DNA of 64,000 bases, from IMG/VR virus record IMGVR_UViG_3300037424_001593, positions 12,964 through 76,963 of that record, one strand, 5' to 3'. Positions 10,779 to 52,265 of this stretch are shown piece after piece; within the stretch, counting starts at the first letter, position 1, and each line of letters opens with the position of its first letter. The translations under genes were made by a program, and so were the position numbers. Under the pieces are notes generated by a model. The model saw only the letters and a program-made list of their open reading frames with translations, ran no database searches and was not told the DNA's origin. The stretch comes from a virus (Duplodnaviria > Caudoviricetes).

Positions 10779-11412
10779 TTAGAACGACCCTGACCTTAGC
10801 CGTTGTGCGATCGCTGCGTCGCGCTTCCCCGTTCGCCGCTTGTTCCGGTGCACCTCTAAAACCGCCTCTATAACCTCGCGACCACGGCGCTCGTACGCTC
10901 GCTGCACGCGGGCAACAATCGCAGAGTGCTCCTCGTCGGTAACCTCATGCCAAATCCGCTCGAGCGTTGCCCGCCCAGCAAGGATCTCATTGACGAGGTG
11001 CAGCACACGCTGGGTCACACGTCCTCCTTCGTAGCCTCACCGGCTGTGAGCTCCGCCGCCCGCTCCTCGCACAAATGCACGCGTGCTGCGCGAAGGTCCC
11101 GCAGACACGCCTTTGCAGTGTGCTCAGCATCGAGCTCCAGATCGAAGAGCTCTTTGGTCGTGCCGCAGATGATACATTTCGCTTCGCTCATGCTTCTCTC
11201 CAGTCGAGCTGCTCGACAGCGTTCAAAAACGCCATCCAGGCGTCGAGCTCGTCGTAGCCTTCCACAACGAGCTCTGTGTCGATGATCGCAATCTCGCAGA
11301 GGATGCCATCTTTCGGTCCGTGACGAAACTGCACGTCGAACCCGGGCACCATCATGCGGCGCACCTCGACAGCGACTTCCTCGAGCGACTCCATGCTCCG
11401 GATGCTCTCCAT
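10779..11412 (-). CDS. Three small overlapping hypothetical ORFs (10779..11018, 11015..11191, 11188..11412)
   Basis: 4-nt stop/start overlaps; middle ORF has CxxC. Confidence 0.55.
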
Positions 11413-11567
11413 TCGCGCGTAAGAAGTCAACGGATCTAGACCCCTGAAAAGGCAAAGGCCCCAGGGAGATTGCTCTCTCGTGGGGTCCTCTGTGGGTTCG
11501 TCCTAAGACGCATACCGCTTTGGTGGATCCCAAGGCTACCCCAGCGGGGCGCAGCCCCGCAAGAGCC

Positions 11568-11607
11568 AAAAAGACAAAGCCCTCGCACGGTTTAGACGTG
11601 CGAGGGC
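11568..11607 (-). terminator. Intrinsic terminator
   Basis: Perfect 11-bp stem GCCCTCGCACG/CGTGCGAGGGC followed on minus strand by TTTGTCTTTTT. Confidence 0.75.
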
Positions 11608-11639
11608 GTAGTGCTTTTTGTGGTTTGAACAGAGCGGAC

Positions 11640-11891
11640 TTACTCGAACGTCGCTCGACTGCGGAAAGCGTAGTACCGCGGTCTTGTTTCCTTATAGGAC
11701 AGGCGGGCGAGCTCCCGCGTAGCGTCGCGCATGCTGCATCGTCTGTGCAGACCCTGCGCCGTTTCTCTGACGACCCTTTGTCTCGCTTCTTCGAGAGGCG
11801 CTTCCGCAGTGCGCCACTTCCAGCAGAGCCAGAAGCAGCACACCAGGAAGAGGAGCCAGAGCACACGTTGAGCATCGAGCAGACTGCTCAA
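11640..11891 (-). CDS. Small membrane protein
   Basis: N-terminal hydrophobic LWLLFLVCCFWLCW. Confidence 0.45.
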   Translation of the reverse strand: MSSLLDAQRVLWLLFLVCCFWLCWKWRTAEAPLEEARQRVVRETAQGLHRRCSMRDATRELARLSYKETRPRYYAFRSRATFE

Positions 11892-24635: not shown

Positions 24636-25066
24636 CCGAGCTCGTTAACCATCCGAAACACTACACGTCACATCCTAGCGGTATAGAACCGATAGCGCTT
24701 TGTCGGCATCTGCCATTTTCCATCGGCAACTGCGTCAAGTACCTGTTTCGTGCCCCGTACAAGGGAACACAGAAGCTCGACCTCGCAAAAAGTCTCTGGT
24801 ATTTGGACGACGCGTGGCAGTACGGCAAGGACATCGACCTTGCGCGCGGTCCGGTACGCGAGCTCCATGCACGCATCCTACAGATAGACGATGTACTCAG
24901 CCGGGTGCTCGCTGCATTGACGCGTGAAGCGCCGCTGCACCAGCTTCCACCCGTGCCGAACAGCAGCACAGATGTGGATGACTATTTCGCGCGCCACGAT
25001 GCGTACCTGCGACGCTGTTATCTCGACGCGCGTGCGCATATCGAAGCGGAGCTCCTCAGGCTGTGA
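24632..25066 (+). CDS. DUF3310-family phage protein
   Basis: VNHPKHY...IE.I...GNCVKY..R...KG...DLAK..WYL. Confidence 0.8.
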   Translation: MTELVNHPKHYTSHPSGIEPIALCRHLPFSIGNCVKYLFRAPYKGTQKLDLAKSLWYLDDAWQYGKDIDLARGPVRELHARILQIDDVLSRVLAALTREAPLHQLPPVPNSSTDVDDYFARHDAYLRRCYLDARAHIEAELLRL

Positions 25067-26049
25067 CGATCTCGTATGCCGTCAAAGCGCCGAAAGCGCT
25101 CGTCGATCGTCGCTACCTGCACGAAGTGCTCGGCATCGAGTCTGCGGGCAGCAAGCACGGGAGCACGCGCTGGAAGCGCATGCGGAAATGCGCGCGCGAG
25201 GAGCAGCTCTATACGCTCGGCGTCCGCAAGAAGGCGATCGCCGTCGAGGACCGAGACAGTCTCGACTTCGGCACGCTCTTCCACATGGGGCTCGAGGTCT
25301 ACTACAAGGCGATGCGCGCCGGAAAGACGATGCGCGAGGGCATCGACGCGTGCTGGTACGCGCTCGATGTCATCGCGGAGGAGCCGGGCTACGAAGAGCT
25401 CTTCGCGGACCTCGATCGATCCATCACAAGCTACTTCGAGTTCGCGGAAAACGACAACTGGGAGATCCTCTGCGTCGAGGACACGTTCTCGCGACAGCTC
25501 GTGTACACGCTCGAAGTTCGCGGCGTAAAGCACAAGATCGTCGAGCCCTACAGCGCGCGCCTCGATCTCGTGATTCGGGATCGTGCGACGACGGGCGTGC
25601 GCATCGTCGAGCACAAGACGACGAAGCGCATGACCGACGACTACCTCGTGGGCTACGAAGCGGATATCCAGACGCTCGGGCAGTGCTGGCTTCTCGAGCC
25701 TTCGCTCCCGCTCCTTGGGCGCTGGGACGGCATCAGCGTCAACATCACGACGCGGCCCTCTGCGCGAAAGCCTCCGACGCATCACCGCTCGAACATTCTC
25801 TTTTCGCCGTACCACATCGCCGAGTTCGAAAAGAGCATGGCTGCAGAGGCGATGCTGAACGAGCTCAGGCGGGATCTGCACTACCCGAAGTCGCTCGGCA
25901 ACTGCAACGGAGCCGTGAACTGGTTCAAGCAGTGCAGCTACTTCGATCTCTGCCATCGTGCTGCGTCGTTCAACATTTTGCCGAACATGGTCGATGATGA
26001 TCTGCCATACGGCTATACGATGCGTGCTGACATTCCTCTCGAAGAGTGA
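25063..26049 (+). CDS. PD-(D/E)xK Cas4/RecB-like exonuclease
   Basis: GTLFH..LE, RLDLV, IVEHKT, terminal C...C..C cluster. Confidence 0.8.
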   Translation: MTISYAVKAPKALVDRRYLHEVLGIESAGSKHGSTRWKRMRKCAREEQLYTLGVRKKAIAVEDRDSLDFGTLFHMGLEVYYKAMRAGKTMREGIDACWYALDVIAEEPGYEELFADLDRSITSYFEFAENDNWEILCVEDTFSRQLVYTLEVRGVKHKIVEPYSARLDLVIRDRATTGVRIVEHKTTKRMTDDYLVGYEADIQTLGQCWLLEPSLPLLGRWDGISVNITTRPSARKPPTHHRSNILFSPYHIAEFEKSMAAEAMLNELRRDLHYPKSLGNCNGAVNWFKQCSYFDLCHRAASFNILPNMVDDDLPYGYTMRADIPLEE

Positions 26050-26066
26050 TATCTAGGATCACCGCA

Positions 26067-26822
26067 ATGCTACACATCCAGAACACACGTGAAGTCATGC
26101 AGCCTTGGATTCACTGTCTCTTCTACGGGGACAGCGGATCAGGTAAGACGACGCTCGCTTCGACATTTCCCGACCCGCTGTTCGTCGTGCCTGCACGCGA
26201 GCGCAGCGAGCTCACACTCGCAGGCCAGGACATCCCGTTCGTGCGCGTAGGCATCGACGAGAACGAAAAGCCGCTTCCGCCGATGAAGCACATGCTCACT
26301 GTGCTTCGCGAAATCGAGAAGCGCCATGCAGCTATGGGCGCCGCGGTGATCGCGGGGGACGAAGCAGCAGCTGCGGCGCATTTTCCGTGGCAGACGCTCG
26401 TCTTCGAGTCGCTCTCGCACTACGTGAGCGACATCCAAATCGAAATCTCGGGTGGGCGTCAGATGGATCAACAGGGCTGGGGCAAGCTCTACGACCACAT
26501 GCGTGAGCTCCACATGCGTCTTCGCGCGCTGCAGTGCCATGTCGTCTTCACGTCGCTCGCGAAGGTGGACGGTGAAGGCACCGCAGCAACGGGCGGTCCG
26601 TCGCTCTCCGGGCAGACGGGAAAGCTCTTGCCGAGCGCGTGCGACATCGTCGGGTACTGCGTCGCGCTCGAGCGCAGCAACCAAGACACGAACTACCAGC
26701 TCTACCTGAAGCAGCATCGCGTTTTCCCTGCGCGCTCACGCTTCAAGACGATGCCGAAGTACTGGGAGAACCCGAGCTTCGCGCAGTTCGCGCCTTACAT
26801 CCCTGGTCTCACGCCTGGTTGA
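26067..26822 (+). CDS. AAA_24/Sak4-like RecA-fold recombinase
   Basis: LFYGDSGSGKTTLA, LVFESLS, GWGKL; sits between exonuclease and SSB. Confidence 0.8.
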   Translation: MLHIQNTREVMQPWIHCLFYGDSGSGKTTLASTFPDPLFVVPARERSELTLAGQDIPFVRVGIDENEKPLPPMKHMLTVLREIEKRHAAMGAAVIAGDEAAAAAHFPWQTLVFESLSHYVSDIQIEISGGRQMDQQGWGKLYDHMRELHMRLRALQCHVVFTSLAKVDGEGTAATGGPSLSGQTGKLLPSACDIVGYCVALERSNQDTNYQLYLKQHRVFPARSRFKTMPKYWENPSFAQFAPYIPGLTPG

Positions 26823-26876
26823 CAACAACTGGGGCAGTACGATAAACGATACGAACACACGAGAGGAATAGCGACA

Positions 26877-27416
26877 ATGACGATTCGATACGGCGGCGGA
26901 AGTGGTGATTTCCCGGTCTACGAGCCTGGCACGTACGACCTCGAGATCATGGAAGCCAACCAGAAGACGGCGAAGAGCGGTAATCCGCAGCTCGTCGTGA
27001 AGTTTCAGTTCGTCGGGGGCCGTTACGACGGCAAGACGATCACGGGCTTCTACTCGCTCATGGAGAGCGCGGGCTGGCGCGTGAATCTGCTCACCGATGC
27101 AGCGGGCATCGAGCGCTCGGAGGTCGCACGTACGGCCGACGACGTGCCGGTGTACGAGTTCGAGGAGGGTGATCTCCTCGGCTGCATCATCCGTGCGGAC
27201 ATCACGGTCAGCACGTACGAGGGCAAGGAGCGCAACAACATCAACAAGGAGCAGCCGGCGCCGAGCTCGGTCGATCAGGCGACCAAGCCGAAGACCGATG
27301 CAGCACCCGCAGCTCCGGCGAGCGCACCGGCTGCAGCAGCGCAGGCGGCACCCGAGGCAGCGCCCGCGCAGGCGGGTCGCTTCTCTCGTCCGGCTCGACG
27401 CGCGGCGGGGGCCTGA
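26877..27416 (+). CDS. DUF669-like single-stranded DNA-binding protein
   Basis: PGTYDLEI.......KSGNPQL..KF; Ala/Pro-rich tail. Confidence 0.75.
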   Translation: MTIRYGGGSGDFPVYEPGTYDLEIMEANQKTAKSGNPQLVVKFQFVGGRYDGKTITGFYSLMESAGWRVNLLTDAAGIERSEVARTADDVPVYEFEEGDLLGCIIRADITVSTYEGKERNNINKEQPAPSSVDQATKPKTDAAPAAPASAPAAAAQAAPEAAPAQAGRFSRPARRAAGA

Positions 27417-27889
27417 TGACCAACGGTCTGAACGGCCTCGGCGACGGCACGACCTCCCGCGAAGAGCAGATGGCGCTCCAACAAATCGCCATCGCCAACG
27501 CGGGGATCTTGCAGTTCGCCATCCCGCACGCGCCTCCGCAGGAGCTGGTCGGACGGCTCGTTCAGGCGTTCGTCACCCAGCCCGACCTCGCGGAAGAGGT
27601 GCTCTCCATCGTGGCGGACCCGGACGCGCGTGTGAGTCATCCGGTGTGGGGCGTGAAAATCGTCCGCACGTCGGACGAGTTCATGCTCGCGCACGTGCAC
27701 GCGCGCAAAGTGCTCGATCCGAACTCACCCACGTACGCTGCGGAGCTCGGCAATTGGCTTCTCATTCTCGCGTACGTCACGACGCCCGCATGCCGGGTTG
27801 CGTGGGGTCCGCTCGGCGTGCGCGTGGAGTTCTACCAAGCCAAAGACGACACACAGAAACCTGCGCTCCCTGAAGTCACGGGCGGTTGA
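27416..27889 (+). CDS. Hypothetical protein with N-terminal LNGLG motif
   Basis: MTNGLNGLGDG. Confidence 0.6.
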   Translation: MTNGLNGLGDGTTSREEQMALQQIAIANAGILQFAIPHAPPQELVGRLVQAFVTQPDLAEEVLSIVADPDARVSHPVWGVKIVRTSDEFMLAHVHARKVLDPNSPTYAAELGNWLLILAYVTTPACRVAWGPLGVRVEFYQAKDDTQKPALPEVTGG

Positions 27890-27898
27890 GGATCACAG

Positions 27899-28186
27899 AT
27901 GGCACAGAGCAAAACGACCAAGAAGCGCGTCGCCCGGACAACCGGTAGCGACCACCTCACGACCCTTCTGAAGAAGGGGTGTACCACGGAGCAGTACGCA
28001 GAGGCTGCGGGCGTCGAGATCTCGACAGCGCGTGTGCGTCTTCGCGCTGCGCTGCAGAACAAAGAGATCGTGCGGTACATGCCCACGCCCTCGAAGGACG
28101 AACAGAAGGCACGCTCGAGCGCAACGCTCTTGAGCTACGGCACGGCGACGCGAGTCCGCCGCAAGCCCCACTACAAGTTTGCCTGA
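27899..28186 (+). CDS. Small helix-turn-helix DNA-binding protein
   Basis: TTEQYAEAAGVEISTARVRL. Confidence 0.6.
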   Translation: MAQSKTTKKRVARTTGSDHLTTLLKKGCTTEQYAEAAGVEISTARVRLRAALQNKEIVRYMPTPSKDEQKARSSATLLSYGTATRVRRKPHYKFA

Positions 28187-28210
28187 GGGCGGACTTGCGT
28201 CTCGGACGCT

Positions 28211-28397
28211 CGTGCGTTCGAGTCTCACGATGATGCACGCAGACCCGGCACGTTTCTTCGTGGGCACGACGAAGCGTGTTCTCCCCCACTGCAGCGCATC
28301 TTCGTGAGACTCGAGAGCACGGCTGTAAGCCCAAAATCTTGGTTGCACCCAAGACTTTGCGGTGGGCCGCCCGTTGTCGCGTGCAAGCGCTGCGGGC
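28211..28397 (+). ncRNA. Candidate structured RNA upstream of DNA polymerase
   Basis: 26-bp stem 28211-28236/28296-28321, inner hairpin, two further hairpins with complementary loops TTGCAC/GTGCAA. Confidence 0.6.
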
Positions 28398-28422
28398 ACT
28401 CTCGACTTTTTAGGGGTGGACG

Positions 28423-31400
28423 ATGGCCGACGGTGAAGTGACGACGCTCGAGACATTCAGCCCGGAGCTCGCAGATTGCGAGGTCTGTTCGCTGCGCGAG
28501 GCGTGCGCCGCACGCAAGTTCGCCACGTCGTTCGTGGGCCCGAAGTACAAGCGCGGCGGACTCATGGTCGTCGGTGAGATGCCGACGCGTCGCGACATCC
28601 AGCAGGGCATCGCGTTCTCAGGACGCGAGGGCGAGCTCTTGCGCGGTATCCTCGGCGACGAGCTCGCGCACATCGATCCTGCCACCGTGTGGTTCACGAA
28701 CGCCTTGCTCACAGAGCAGCCGGGTCTTCGTGGCGCGAAGAACGACGCGAATAAGAAGGCTGCGCTCGCGCAGTACGCAAAGAACCTCTACGCGTGTCAG
28801 CCGCGGCTTGTTGCTGAGATCGAGTACGCGCAGCCTCGCGTCATCGTCACGCTCGGGCAGGGTGCGCTCGACGCGCTTACCTCGCGCGAAGAGCAGAAGG
28901 TGCGGCTCATCGACGTGCCGTGCGAGCACTGCGATCCCGTAGACCGCAAGATCGGGCCCTTCATGGTGTGCGCCGGGTCCGTGCACAGCGAGGACGAGAC
29001 CGTCGTCGGGTGCAAGCACCGCACGCCGCTCCCGGACGTCACCCTGTGGTTCGAGAAGCGCCGCGCGCATTTGTCTGCGCTGCTCGAGGCCTACGACGAG
29101 GGCGTCATCATGAACGACGCCCACCGTGAAGATCCGGAGCGCATGGCGCGACAGCACGCGCTCGATGCGCACGTCGCGCAGGCGAACGATCCCACAAAGT
29201 GCTGGCGTGCGTGGTGGCTCGAGCAGAACGCGGGCGTGTGCCCGACGTGCAAGAGCTCGATGCGGAAGATCCGCCCGAAGCGCATCGCGTGCGACGTTTG
29301 CGGGGGCAAGAAGAAGCGGCAGGAGATCGAGACGCTCTTCGTGCGGGAGTACACGCTCACGGGCCGTGAGGGCGCTGTCGGTGCGGTCATCGCTGCGCCG
29401 GGATTCGCCGACCTCGGTGTGAAGTACATCATCCCTACCTACGCGATGGACGCGCTCCTCGTACCTGCGCGTGATGGCGCAAAGGGCGGCAAGACGGGCG
29501 GCACGCTGCAGTTCGGGCAGTACGCGGCGCGCCCGTGCGTCGATCACTTCTCGAAGGCGAGACGGCTGCTCACGCGGGACGCTGTGTTCAACGTCGATGT
29601 GATCACGACCGAGGGCATGAGCTCGGAAGAAGCAGCCGAGCTCGTACGCGACTACACAGCGGAGCCGGGCACGTACACGGTCGATATCGAGACCGACAGC
29701 ATGGACGGCGCGTGGAAGGTCACGTGCATCACGTGCATCGGGATCAACCGCATCGACTGGGACGACGCGCTCGTTGTCGATACGCGCTGGATCGGTGGAC
29801 GCTGGCACGAAGGCGATCCGCTCTACGAGGCGCTCGGTGACTTCCTCGCAGACGAGGCAAAGAAGAAGGTGCTGCACAACGCGCCCTACGATCGCGTCGT
29901 CATGCTCCGCCTGTGGGGCTTCGTGACCGAAGGCGTCGAGGCCGACACGATGCTCGCGCACAACGCGTGCTACCCGGACGAGGAGCACAACCTCGGGTTC
30001 TGCGCGCACGAGCTCACCGACGCGCCGATGTGGAAGGGCGGCGGCGTCACGAAGCAGAAGTTCGACGAGCACAAGCTCTTGTCGGGCTACCGCACGTTCC
30101 CTGACCTCGCGCTCTACAACGCGCGCGACCTTCGTGCGACGAGCAAGGTGCGCGACGCGCTCCTTGGGTACAACGGCAAGGCGCACGGGCGCGTGGACTT
30201 CGAGAAGGTGCGCGAGGTCTTCAACACCGACATGCGAATGCAGGCGTACTGCATCGACATGGAGGTCAACGGGATGCCGCTCAACCGCAAGCACTTGCAG
30301 CTCGTGGACGAAGGGAAGTCCAAAGACGTTGCGCTGCTTCTGAGCGACATGCGGCAGTTCGTGGGTGAGTGCCCGCCCGAGATCCTCGGTAAGAACGAGC
30401 AGTGGCGCCCCACAGGCAAGATGCTCCAGTGGGCGCTCTACGACCCAACGGGTCCGCTCGGCTTGCCCGTGCTCAAATCGACAACCAAGGGCGGCTCCAC
30501 GGACAAAGACACGCTGCAGCAGCACATCAGCGTTCCGTTCGTCCGGACGCTCGTGCAGTACAACAAAGAGGAGTACGTGCTCGCGCACTACGTGCGAAGC
30601 AGCGAGCTCGAGACCGCAGAGGATGGGCGGCTGCATCCGCAGTGGAAGTGCCACGGCGCGCGCACAGGGCGCTTCACCTCGTACCCGAACATGCAGAACT
30701 GGCCGCGCTGGATGCGGCAGGCGTTCACAGCGCCCAAGGGCCGTAAGCTCGTCGGCGCGGACCAAAGCCAGCTCGAGATGCGCATCATGGCTGCGCTCAG
30801 CGGCGACGCGGAGATGATCCACCGCTGCGCGACGGCGAACGAGAAGGACAAGCTCAACCCGGAAGCTGATCCGCACAGTTACATGGCGAGCAAGACGTTC
30901 GGCGCCGCGTTCACGGATAAGAACATGGCCGATCCGCTCCACTACAAGGCGGCGCCCGGACAGCGCGCGTGTAAATGCGAGACGTGTCAGCGCTCGATGC
31001 TGCGCGAGATCGTCAAGCGCGTCGTGTACGGCCTGAACTACGGCGCAGGCGCGCAGACCGTGCTCGATGCGATCTATGACGCTGGCTACGACGGACCTGC
31101 GCTCGACGTGCGCGAGATCGAACGCGTCACCGCGGTCTACTTCCGCACGTTCCCGGGCGTGCCGATCTGGCGCAACAACACGTACAACGCAGCGCTGCGT
31201 GACCGCGAGATCCGAAGCCCGCTGCTCGGCAGACACCGCATCTTTCCGCTCGGCAGCGTCGATCCCTCGGTCGTGTACAACTACCCGATCCAGAGCGGCG
31301 GCGCGGACATCATGGCGCTCGGCCTCATGCGGCTGATGCCCGACCTCGCAGCCGTCGATCCGACCGCTGTGCTCATCGCGCAGATCCACGACGCCATCTA

Positions 31401-31548
31401 CTTCGAGTGCGACGAAGATCGCGCGCACGCTGTGGGCGAGCTCATCACCGAGCGCATGAGCGCTGAGCACGTGCTTGCACCTGGAGCGCCCGCGATGCCG
31501 TTCGTGATGAAGGCCAAGATCGGTGACGATCTATTCGTATTGAGCTGA
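28423..31548 (+). CDS. polA: Family A DNA polymerase with N-terminal UDG family-4-like domain and 3'-5' exonuclease
   Basis: CxxC..VVGEMP..F.G..G (UDG-like); DIETD/HNAPYD/YNARD (exo); DQSQLEMR, KRVVYGLNYG, QIHDA (pol motifs A, B, C). Confidence 0.9.
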   Translation: MADGEVTTLETFSPELADCEVCSLREACAARKFATSFVGPKYKRGGLMVVGEMPTRRDIQQGIAFSGREGELLRGILGDELAHIDPATVWFTNALLTEQPGLRGAKNDANKKAALAQYAKNLYACQPRLVAEIEYAQPRVIVTLGQGALDALTSREEQKVRLIDVPCEHCDPVDRKIGPFMVCAGSVHSEDETVVGCKHRTPLPDVTLWFEKRRAHLSALLEAYDEGVIMNDAHREDPERMARQHALDAHVAQANDPTKCWRAWWLEQNAGVCPTCKSSMRKIRPKRIACDVCGGKKKRQEIETLFVREYTLTGREGAVGAVIAAPGFADLGVKYIIPTYAMDALLVPARDGAKGGKTGGTLQFGQYAARPCVDHFSKARRLLTRDAVFNVDVITTEGMSSEEAAELVRDYTAEPGTYTVDIETDSMDGAWKVTCITCIGINRIDWDDALVVDTRWIGGRWHEGDPLYEALGDFLADEAKKKVLHNAPYDRVVMLRLWGFVTEGVEADTMLAHNACYPDEEHNLGFCAHELTDAPMWKGGGVTKQKFDEHKLLSGYRTFPDLALYNARDLRATSKVRDALLGYNGKAHGRVDFEKVREVFNTDMRMQAYCIDMEVNGMPLNRKHLQLVDEGKSKDVALLLSDMRQFVGECPPEILGKNEQWRPTGKMLQWALYDPTGPLGLPVLKSTTKGGSTDKDTLQQHISVPFVRTLVQYNKEEYVLAHYVRSSELETAEDGRLHPQWKCHGARTGRFTSYPNMQNWPRWMRQAFTAPKGRKLVGADQSQLEMRIMAALSGDAEMIHRCATANEKDKLNPEADPHSYMASKTFGAAFTDKNMADPLHYKAAPGQRACKCETCQRSMLREIVKRVVYGLNYGAGAQTVLDAIYDAGYDGPALDVREIERVTAVYFRTFPGVPIWRNNTYNAALRDREIRSPLLGRHRIFPLGSVDPSVVYNYPIQSGGADIMALGLMRLMPDLAAVDPTAVLIAQIHDAIYFECDEDRAHAVGELITERMSAEHVLAPGAPAMPFVMKAKIGDDLFVLS

Positions 31549-31561
31549 GGAGGAGAACACA

Positions 31562-32122
31562 GTGAGCATTCTAGACGAGACACAGCGACGCATCTACGTC
31601 GCCGCATCGAGCGCCACAAGCCAGCGGGCGCGCGTACGCGCGTTTCACGACGCCGTCGTCGAGCAAGGTTGGGTGCACTCGCACCCGTGGCTCGATCGGC
31701 TCGAGCAGGTCGAGGCCGCAGGGGAAAAGCCCACAGACGGTGTGATCGCGCGCTGCGCGTACGAGGACTACCTCGGCGTCATGTTCGCGCATGTGTTCGT
31801 GTTCCTGGTGCCGCCGGTGGGTTTCCGCACGAACGCAACGGCGGAGTTCGGGATGGCGCTCGGTCTAGGGGTGCCGAAGATCATGCTCGTCGGCGCGCCG
31901 GCTGATGTGGACGCGGAGTTTTTCTCGTACCTGCGGCTCTTGCCGGACGCAGCGTTTGCGAACATCATTACTGTGAGCACAGACGCCGAAGCGCTCTCTG
32001 TCTTGCAGTACGCGCGCGAGTCCTCGCTCAAGTTCGCGAGCATGATGGGCAAGCTGTTCAACACCCTCACGCCACGAGAGCAAGAGCTCGCCACGCGCCT
32101 CAACAAAGGAGAGAGCCGATGA
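31562..32122 (+). CDS. Nucleoside 2-deoxyribosyltransferase-like protein
   Basis: RIYVA ... D..GV..A..FVF ... AEFGMALG. Confidence 0.65.
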   Translation: MSILDETQRRIYVAASSATSQRARVRAFHDAVVEQGWVHSHPWLDRLEQVEAAGEKPTDGVIARCAYEDYLGVMFAHVFVFLVPPVGFRTNATAEFGMALGLGVPKIMLVGAPADVDAEFFSYLRLLPDAAFANIITVSTDAEALSVLQYARESSLKFASMMGKLFNTLTPREQELATRLNKGESR

Positions 32123-51172: not shown

Positions 51173-51912
51173 CGCTTCTTCCTCTTCTTCCCCGCGCCGG
51201 AGAGATCTTTGTGCGCGCCGCACTGCAGCGCGTAGATGGGTTCGCTGACCATGATTTCTTCGCTGCCACGCTTCTCGAAGCGCTTGTACGCGCCCGCTGC
51301 GACAGCGCGACCCTTCTCATGCTGCTTCTTCCAGAACGCGTTCGAGGCGCTGTCCGGGAGGCGCAGGTACGAGACGAGCGGCTCGCCCGCTTCGCACGCG
51401 TCTTTTGCGGCACGTTCGTAGAGCTTCGTGCCGTAGCCCTTGCGCTTGTTCCGCCCGTACGTCTCGATCGAATCCACGGTGCGAATGAACGGGAGCGACG
51501 TCAACGCCTTCGCGCATTTGCGTGAGTGGCCTTCGCGGCATGCGTCCTTCGTGGGCTTCTCGCGCGTGACGTACATCTCGCTGACGACGTCTTCTTCCTC
51601 GCCGTCCGTGCATGTCATCCAGTAGTAGGTCTGGTTGCCGACCGGCATCGCGTGCACTTCGCACTGCTCGAGTGCGCCGAAGCCCCGCCCCTTGCGCCGA
51701 CGCATGCCGTTCAGCGTTGGGAGATCCGCGTGCTCGTCCTCGCCGTAGTCGAGCGTCGGGAGGTCACGCGTGTGTTCGTCCTCTATACGTGGCGCTTGAT
51801 CGCGCGCGAGCGACGACACGCAACGGTAGTGCGCAGGGACGAGCACGCGCCGTCGTCCGTCGCACGCTACGGGCTTCGGGCCTTCTAGGGCGGGGGATCG
51901 ACGCTTCGGCAT
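51169..51912 (-). CDS. GNAT-family acetyltransferase with N-terminal extension
   Basis: VDSIET...KRKGYGTKLYERA (motif A); GRGFG in leader. Confidence 0.65.
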   Translation of the reverse strand: MPKRRSPALEGPKPVACDGRRRVLVPAHYRCVSSLARDQAPRIEDEHTRDLPTLDYGEDEHADLPTLNGMRRRKGRGFGALEQCEVHAMPVGNQTYYWMTCTDGEEEDVVSEMYVTREKPTKDACREGHSRKCAKALTSLPFIRTVDSIETYGRNKRKGYGTKLYERAAKDACEAGEPLVSYLRLPDSASNAFWKKQHEKGRAVAAGAYKRFEKRGSEEIMVSEPIYALQCGAHKDLSGAGKKRKKR

Positions 51913-51914
51913 AG

Positions 51915-52091
51915 GAGGTAGCTACCTCTCTTCTTATCCCACGAGGGGTAGCTACCTCCCCCGTTGCTACCAGGTAGCTACTCCAGGGCGGCAGGGTAGC
52001 TACCTAATATGTAGGTCTTTATCCCACATATGTATTACCTATAATAGGTCATACCTTTTCTTCTGTCAGTAAAGAATATATTTACTGACGG
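51915..52091. promoter_or_regulatory. Palindrome-rich control region between divergent late (left) and early-type (right) genes
   Basis: GGTAGCTACC x3 plus 2 degenerate, late motif at 51932, ACCTAT-A-ATAGGT, GTCAGTAAA-N7-TTTACTGAC. Confidence 0.7.
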
Positions 52092-52265
52092 CACGTCTCA
52101 CTAGGGTACGAACGAAAGGGACACGAGACACAGCACACGCGGGGGCGAGCCTCGCGATCACGCGACTCCGGCAACGGCGGACCCGAATGCGTCGGTTCGA
52201 TCACGTGCCCCGTGCAGCCACTCTGCACGGACGCTAGCGGTTCATTGACATTCTAAGGAAACAAA

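Follow-up and report, generated by a model that had tools for sequence, protein, structure and literature searches.

A strongly structured, non-coding gap before polA in the replication operon of an uncultured phage, probably a cis-acting RNA

Introduction

Little is known about how uncultured phages balance their DNA polymerase against recombination and SSB proteins. The phage analysed here raises this question at one particular place: the genes of its replication module are co-directional and spaced by −4 to 54 nt, with the sole exception of a 236-nt gap (28187-28422) between g95 and the polymerase gene polA. An initial annotation had described a long helix and two hairpins with complementary loops in this gap and had read them as a cis-regulatory, ribozyme-like or oligomerising RNA. 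Here, we ask whether the gap is structured beyond expectation, whether it belongs to anything known, and what it might do directly in front of a polymerase gene. A very stable RNA element at the g95-polA junction would offer a testable handle on post-transcriptional control in a clade that has no cultured member.

Results and Discussion

The gap interrupts an otherwise compact replication module

The virus record is complete (76,963 bp with direct terminal repeats, 62% G+C); the window, i.e. the 64-kb stretch of DNA that was analysed, is a part of it, and positions refer to the window unless another locus is named. The sequencing runs that hold the phage are two sediment DNA runs, the contigs of which are identical to the window. 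The assembly of a sediment run contained a 76,866-nt contig wrapping around the stretch, which is consistent with the terminal repeats. In a second sediment metagenome, which originates from a different study, the contigs were identical to the phage across positions 25000-32000, with zero sequence variants.

The replication module is encoded on the plus strand in the order DUF3310 protein, PD-(D/E)XK exonuclease, Sak4-like annealase, DUF669 SSB-like protein, g157, g95 and polA (Table 1). The first methionine of the polymerase is nearly invariant in the family alignment (A1). Within its N-terminal UDG-like domain (28423-29600), the same alignment displays the invariant cysteine pairs C167/C170, C273/C276 and C290/C293, which suggest a zinc-binding insertion that is conserved across the family.

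For g95, with a GC3 of 0.80, a word-index protein search returned the self-match only, while homologues were identified in two other phages, here termed L064 (41% identity, E 2e-14) and L021 (weak, 27%, E 5e-4; family alignment A4), and the L021 member matches MarR_2 at 1.3e-6. The AlphaFold2 model of g95 (pLDDT 69) has only weak, generic winged-helix neighbours in the PDB, namely ArsR/SmtB, MarR and TFE, with 0 neighbours at E≤0.001.

Table 1 Genes and predicted RNA features around the gap upstream of polA (window positions).
Feature	Position	Strand	Description
g157	27416-27889	+	Replication-module gene before g95
g95	27899-28186	+	Gene of a small winged-helix protein with a basic tail; immediately precedes the element
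H0	28147-28201	+	14-bp helix with the g95 stop codon (28184-28186) inside; arms 93% complementary (inverted repeat I2)
H1 domain	28211-28321	+	26-bp helix with 5-bp extension, asymmetric internal loop ACCCGG / UUCUCCCCCA, inner hairpin
C-rich strand	28279-28288	+	Unpaired TTCTCCCCCA, 3' side of the internal loop; sole exact copy in the window
Hairpin 2	28332-28359	+	AT-richer palindrome; loop UUGCAC (28343-28348)
Hairpin 3	28369-28397	+	Imperfect stem; loop GUGCAA (28381-28386), complementary to the hairpin 2 loop
Ribosome site	28407-28425	+	U5 run (28407-28411), Shine-Dalgarno AGGGGUGG (28412-28419) and polA ATG (28423); mostly unpaired in the predicted fold
polA	28423-31548	+	Fusion of UDG-like domain, 3'-5' exonuclease and family A DNA polymerase, 1,041 aa; Pfam and PHROG matches

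The gap is the strongest folding outlier of the genome

The structural description in the initial annotation held throughout. The arms 28211-28236 and 28296-28321 form an inverted repeat of 88% complementarity with two mismatches (G28216·A28316 and U28231·U28301) and one G-U pair (U28217-G28315), which ranks first among the 52 inverted repeats of the window. RNAfold lengthens this helix by 5 bp (CGCAG/CUGC-G), places the inner hairpin at 28249-28278 (13 bp, loop GGGC at 28262-28265), leaving an internal loop of 6 x 10 nt, and recovers hairpins 2 and 3 where they had first been located, with 25 nt between the end of hairpin 3 and the polA ATG. Within the 111 nt of the H1 domain, the tetramers CACG/CGTG appear about nine times, as counted by eye.

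The whole gap folds with −115 kcal/mol (z = −5.1), and 0 of 200 dinucleotide shuffles were as good. After correction for G+C content, the 240-nt segment 28118-28357 is the top folding outlier of the 1,919 segments that cover the 76,963-bp genome. Separate outliers follow at 51800-52160 (z −3.8), 1800-2040 (z −3.1) and 11400-11760 (z −3.0); the last of these contains, near 11.6 kb, a terminator-like hairpin that is bidirectional (11568-11618).

The plus (sense) strand of the whole gap is more stable than the minus strand by 3.6 kcal/mol and contains more G-U pairs, and a plus-strand advantage was likewise found for the corresponding gaps of L064 (−10.4 kcal/mol) and L021 (−25 kcal/mol) and for hairpins of two further relatives (L004, −5 kcal/mol; L008, −12 kcal/mol). 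The exception is hairpin 2, which is more stable on the minus strand (−17.0 vs −11.4 kcal/mol). Since the plus strand as a whole folds better and with more G-U pairs, an RNA or single-stranded structure is favoured over a symmetric DNA site.

This bears directly on the possibility that the inverted repeats act at the DNA level, as duplex sites bound by g95 that form an operator of a polA promoter or a site resembling an origin or a centromere. With its winged-helix fold and basic tail, g95 is of a DNA-binding type, its gene always lies beside a structured gap, the conserved arm sequence GTCTC…ATGA / TC.T…GAGRC could represent inverted protein sites, and hairpin 2 is a palindrome (TCTTGG-N6-CCAAGA) with operator-like spacing. 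However, duplex sites need neither the better folding of the sense strand nor its G-U pairs, which were seen in all three phages, and the arms of the long helix are 59 nt apart, unlike those of known winged-helix operators. Moreover, no recognisable promoter is present in the gap. As for a replication origin, the cumulative GC skew has its minimum at about 13-15 kb and does not turn at 28 kb, and the repeat analysis of the window revealed no iterons. A DNA-level function thus appears improbable to us.

No known RNA family, gene or canonical signal accounts for the gap

In agreement with the earlier assignment to no known family, not a single Rfam model reached its gathering threshold anywhere in the window. 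Even at E≤10, Rfam 15 returned noise only for positions 28100-28500, namely mir-5882 with 20 bits (threshold 95) and chrB-b with 11.7 bits (threshold 36.5). The initial reading is supported in part: its cis-acting version is the most economical one, as the element is structured, lies on the sense strand and is located 5' of polA, while the ribozyme-like part found no Rfam match at E≤10. ARAGORN identified 0 tRNA or tmRNA genes in the window and the tRNA family RF00005 did not match; as a positive control, a tRNA-Gln was detected in the equivalent slot of a relative (L076).

Coding readings were rejected as well. GC3 is about 0.6 in all frames of the gap, compared with about 0.8 for the genes on either side. 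The overlapping open reading frames, one of 187 aa on the minus strand and three small ones on the plus strand, have flat GC3 and no family matches. A mobile element was likewise discarded, the sequence being single-copy in the phage genome (self-match only), and patterns of the arms had 0 other copies in 185,579 species genomes or 2.9 million viral contigs. Correia-type miniature inverted-repeat elements have 26-bp terminal repeats and can fold as RNase III-sensitive hairpins, and our unit of about 110 nt is similarly bounded by 26-nt inverted repeats. In contrast to such elements, however, it is present once in the phage and its arms are absent from the genome and viral collections. From these results we conclude that the gap is a real, strongly structured, non-coding element without a known family.

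Neither sigma70-like promoters nor copies of the phage late-promoter motif were found in the gap, and read-through from upstream is therefore the simplest assumption for its transcription. A canonical intrinsic terminator, i.e. a G+C-rich hairpin with a U-rich tract within 0-3 nt, was rejected for lack of any plus-strand site in 28187-28422; clear canonical terminators of the phage are located elsewhere (11615+, 38411+ and 1442−).

A leaky attenuator would be a weaker variant of such a signal, in which hairpin 3 competes with a less stable hairpin at 28375-28406 that is followed by the U5 run, and the balance of the two sets the read-through into polA. The alternative hairpin (GUCG.GUGC…GCAC…CGAC, then UUUUU; −12.3 kcal/mol) and hairpin 3 (−19.2 kcal/mol) are indeed mutually exclusive, and terminator-like hairpins occur at the equivalent boundary in several relatives. 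However, the terminator form is weaker by about 7 kcal/mol and would be transcribed after its competitor, the consensus scan for terminators was negative in the gap, and the dominant 26-bp helix would be left unexplained. We regard attenuation as very unlikely.

The same searches speak to a stand-alone stable RNA that is cut from the operon transcript, be it a decoy, a rod of the 6S kind or a passenger resembling a tRNA. Like 6S RNA, the element has the fold of a rod, about 110-190 nt long and interrupted by an internal loop, and a T-arm-like GTTCGAGTC is found at 28216-28224 in the 5' arm; in addition, the tRNA-Gln of L076 occupies the same slot, and tRNA or tRNA-like genes are near in L017 and L019. 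On the other hand, nothing in Rfam (6S, Y RNA, tRNA or the rest) matched at E≤10 and ARAGORN found nothing. The element itself has neither a promoter nor a terminator, its small asymmetric internal loop is smaller than the 6S central bubble, and the 26-bp helix sequesters the T-arm-like bases. It seems hardly probable that the element is such a free RNA.

The loops of hairpins 2 and 3 are exactly complementary

The claim that hairpins 2 and 3 could kiss was borne out as far as complementarity is concerned: UUGCAC and GUGCAA are exact reverse complements (6/6), and both contain UGCA. The complementarity ends at the loop borders, where a G·G follows outside and a C·C inside, and neither hexamer was found in any other hairpin loop of the genome. 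We estimate the chance of such a match at 1/4096 for this particular pair and at about 0.02-0.05 if all noticeable hairpin pairs are allowed for. The conservation of the loops did not hold up, however, because no loop pair with at least 4 nt of complementarity is present in the elements of L064 and L021. As the only other sample holding the phage is identical, the putative kissing interaction is a single-sequence observation.

In established kissing complexes, such as TAR-TAR*, the HIV-1 dimerisation site, RNA I/II of ColE1 and the L2-L3 contact of the purine riboswitch, hairpin loops pair with each other. Our hairpins resemble them in their two fully complementary 6-nt loops with a palindromic UGCA core in each; unlike them, the putative contact shows no covariation and has no counterpart in the L064 and L021 elements.

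Long intercistronic hairpins recur in the replication operons of relatives

The comparison comprised about 140 loci (designated by L-numbers), which were taken from viral and metagenome collections and from contigs encoding the closest polymerases. The relatives are remote: the nearest polA product among 5.8 billion proteins is 54% identical, the best polymerase matches of cultured phages, according to phage records, are 23-26% identical, and DNA similarity to the gap was found neither in phage records nor in any fetched locus. The gene order is nevertheless conserved, with Sak4, DUF669, g157, often a g95-like gene, and then polA. In most relatives, including the closest, polA starts 3-30 nt after the preceding gene (e.g. 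a Dam methylase) or overlaps with it. Consequently, an element before polA is not a general requirement for polA expression.

We surveyed stems in 37 distinct relatives (280 kb), using a stem score of our own with a cutoff of ≥15. All of the 14 stems above the cutoff are situated upstream of polA, where the gaps of the replication module are, and five of them lie within 600 nt of polA, in our phage, L064 and L021. At the boundary after g157, terminator-like hairpins with short U tails were observed in L009, L006 and L069. A similar hairpin follows the DUF669 gene of L007. In L064, a 21-bp hairpin separates the SSB-like from the g157-like gene, and a sigma70-type promoter (TTGACG-17-TACTAT; L064:2180-2215) follows directly after the latter. 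In L076, the tRNA-Gln mentioned above (anticodon TTG; L076:2401-2477) directly precedes polA (start at 2498) and thus occupies the slot of our structured gap. A tRNA is located at 1504-1604 of L017, and an odd tRNA-like call was obtained at 2576-2645 of L019.

Two groups of hairpins after the g157-like gene are conserved among relatives. Those of L095 (1830-1881) and L093 (1834-1884), just after this gene, are long and homologous (z −5.1 and −5.8, respectively); conservation extends over the outer stem and the C-rich loop (CUUCACCCCCUUCAU and CUUGUCCCCUUCAG, respectively), whereas compensatory changes set the inner stems apart, and in L093 a U-rich tail follows the hairpin. L004 (1513-1582), L008 (2198-2273) and L072 (644-719) carry a conserved hairpin of about 30 bp with the common loop core CUGUCCU and stem core CCUCGAC…GUCGAGG. 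Long hairpins between cistrons thus recur in the replication operon of these phages.

Two divergent phages carry a structured gap between a g95-like gene and polA

Among the fetched loci, the order g95-like gene, long non-coding gap and polA is found in only two other phages. L064 (72-kb contig, polymerase 53% identical) has a gap of 372 nt with z = −4.1, and L021 (87-kb contig, polymerase 31% identical) one of 294 nt with z = −5.9. Each of these gaps comprises two long-range helices of 14-24 bp, and each helix encloses a sub-domain.

The first domain of L021 (L021:2687-2783) also resembles H1 in sequence. The global alignment scored 48 as opposed to 25.7±6.8 for shuffles and surpassed 997 of 1000 dinucleotide shuffles (p = 0.003), while L064 gave no comparable similarity. 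Common to H1 and L021 are a GUCUC…AUGA helix block and an unpaired UCUCCCCCA at an equivalent place (L021:2746-2754). If the alignment is anchored on the shared GTCTC, the two phages agree at 9 of the 12 central positions of the helix (GTCTCACGATGA in our phage, GTCTCGTAATGA in L021); in their outer half, the helices are aligned by position alone. Of 24 aligned pairs, 22 are paired in both phages, which includes eight identical pairs, one with a change on one side and 13 with changes on both sides, none of which is broken in L021. In both phages, the strand after the inner hairpin starts with TTCT, and CTCCCCCA occurs in it shortly ahead of the 3' arm.

Other observations weaken this correspondence. 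A covariance model built from our sequence alone scored L021 with 17.8 bits (E ~1.1 in 0.73 Mb), which is in the range of other long hairpins, and its best match apart from the self-match was L004:1506-1588 (23.9 bits). TCTCCCCCA, which is present in both H1 and L021, occurs in about 11 of the 140 loci, with one-mismatch matches in the window at chance level, and C-runs are common at this G+C content, so that the C-run alone is weak evidence. Furthermore, strict pattern scans of the viral and genome collections for a third member of the motif returned L021's own contig only, and the L021 polymerase has no close relative in IMG/VR. Common descent of H1 and the first domain of L021 is likely but unproven; if it applies, the motif would have been kept beside a winged-helix gene and polA despite a polymerase identity of about 31%.

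These data have to be weighed for a regulatory leader specific to polA, in which a fold compacted by the kissing loops would be bound by the polymerase or the winged-helix protein and thereby tune translation or stability of the polA mRNA. The element lies immediately 5' of polA, the 6/6 match is confined to loops whose hexamers are not found in other hairpin loops of the genome, the order of g95-like gene, structured gap and polA is shared by three divergent phages, and the features common with L021 include the 13 of 22 pairs that changed on both sides. An example of polymerase autoregulation is the translational operator of gene 43 in T4/RB69, a short hairpin of about 36 nt that overlaps the ribosome site; it shares with our element the position of a structured RNA immediately in front of a phage DNA polymerase gene. 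However, our element is far longer than the gene 43 operator, at about 250 nt; 25 nt separate its end from the ATG, the predicted fold keeps the Shine-Dalgarno free, and the polymerase downstream is of family A and not of family B. An anti-Shine-Dalgarno role of the C-rich strand was rejected, because its duplexes with the polA ribosome site were no better than shuffles in our phage, L021 and L064. The lack of complementary loops in L064 and L021, the absence of any leader in most relatives and the low covariance score of L021 also count against a polA-specific leader, which we consider unlikely though worth weighing.

A narrower version would make H1 the first representative of a new phage RNA motif, characterised by a long helix with the conserved GUCUC…AUGA block and by the unpaired UCUCCCCCA strand. 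The motif would be bound sequence-specifically by the winged-helix protein or the polymerase for feedback on the replication genes, and in our phage the two downstream hairpins would be compacted by the 6-bp kiss. We judge this to be rather doubtful. If the similarity to L021 does reflect common descent, it would point to a new class of cis-regulatory RNA tied to a winged-helix protein.

The gap may punctuate the operon transcript

The gap is structured and non-coding, lies directly 5' of polA and, within a co-directional operon, folds better as the sense strand. A cis-acting RNA explains these features most economically, and we conclude that the structure is probably a cis-acting RNA of the replication operon. 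More specifically, we tentatively favour an intercistronic mRNA element that would be processed by a double-strand-specific RNase, or would confer stability, and thereby set polA expression, although we put this well short of an even chance. Positions 28147-28397 would then represent the structured, untranslated junction of g95 and polA within one long sense-strand operon transcript. With its 26 bp and 5-bp extension, H1 contains the near-continuous double-stranded RNA of about 20 bp or more that marks RNase III sites structurally, and could serve as a substrate for an RNase III-type enzyme or as a barrier to exonucleases. A cut or stall at H1 would leave the upstream messages (exonuclease, Sak4, SSB-like protein, g157 and g95) ending in a protective stem, and the released polA message would begin with hairpins 2 and 3, followed by the free U-rich tract and Shine-Dalgarno. 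In this way, the level of the polymerase could be set apart from that of the stoichiometric recombination and SSB proteins and might, by analogy with the early RNase III sites of T7, be kept low relative to the annealase and the SSB protein. That the gap is transcribed, that the transcript is cut or stabilised there and that polA is affected are steps that we infer.

Several lines of evidence are in accordance with such punctuation of the transcript. As the Shine-Dalgarno and the start codon are largely unpaired, processing or stability fits better than occlusion of the ribosome site, and the other kinds of transcript punctuation at the boundary in relatives, i.e. terminator-like hairpins, a promoter and a tRNA, were counted in its favour. 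On the opposite side, the direct joining of polA to the preceding gene in most relatives implies that the family can do without punctuation at this particular place. The GUCUC…AUGA block and UCUCCCCCA shared with L021 suggest sequence-specific recognition, which a generic double-stranded RNA target does not need, and the minus-strand preference of hairpin 2 counts against an RNA element of this kind. Finally, transcript punctuation leaves the exact loop-loop complementarity without a role.

The closest parallels are the early RNase III sites of T7 and T3 (R0.3-R1.3), long, imperfect intergenic hairpins of a polycistronic transcript in which an internal loop divides a lower stem from an upper hairpin. 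These sites set cistrons apart and provide them with stabilising 3' stems; one of the sites is located directly before an enzyme gene. H1, a candidate site by its predicted fold, has the same layout, but is longer (31-bp lower stem, 13-bp upper hairpin), is followed by two further hairpins and has no sequence similarity to the T7/T3 sites. If the gap harbours an RNase III-type site only, it would be an ordinary though unusually strong example.

Apart from the gap, two further observations concern replication genes of the relatives. The Sak4-like AAA_24 gene of L064 (L064:1-878) carries an intein with an HNH domain. The polymerases of several relatives comprise 1,280-1,600 aa, and one of the relatives' polymerases (P0047) carries PF14528, which is absent from the others.
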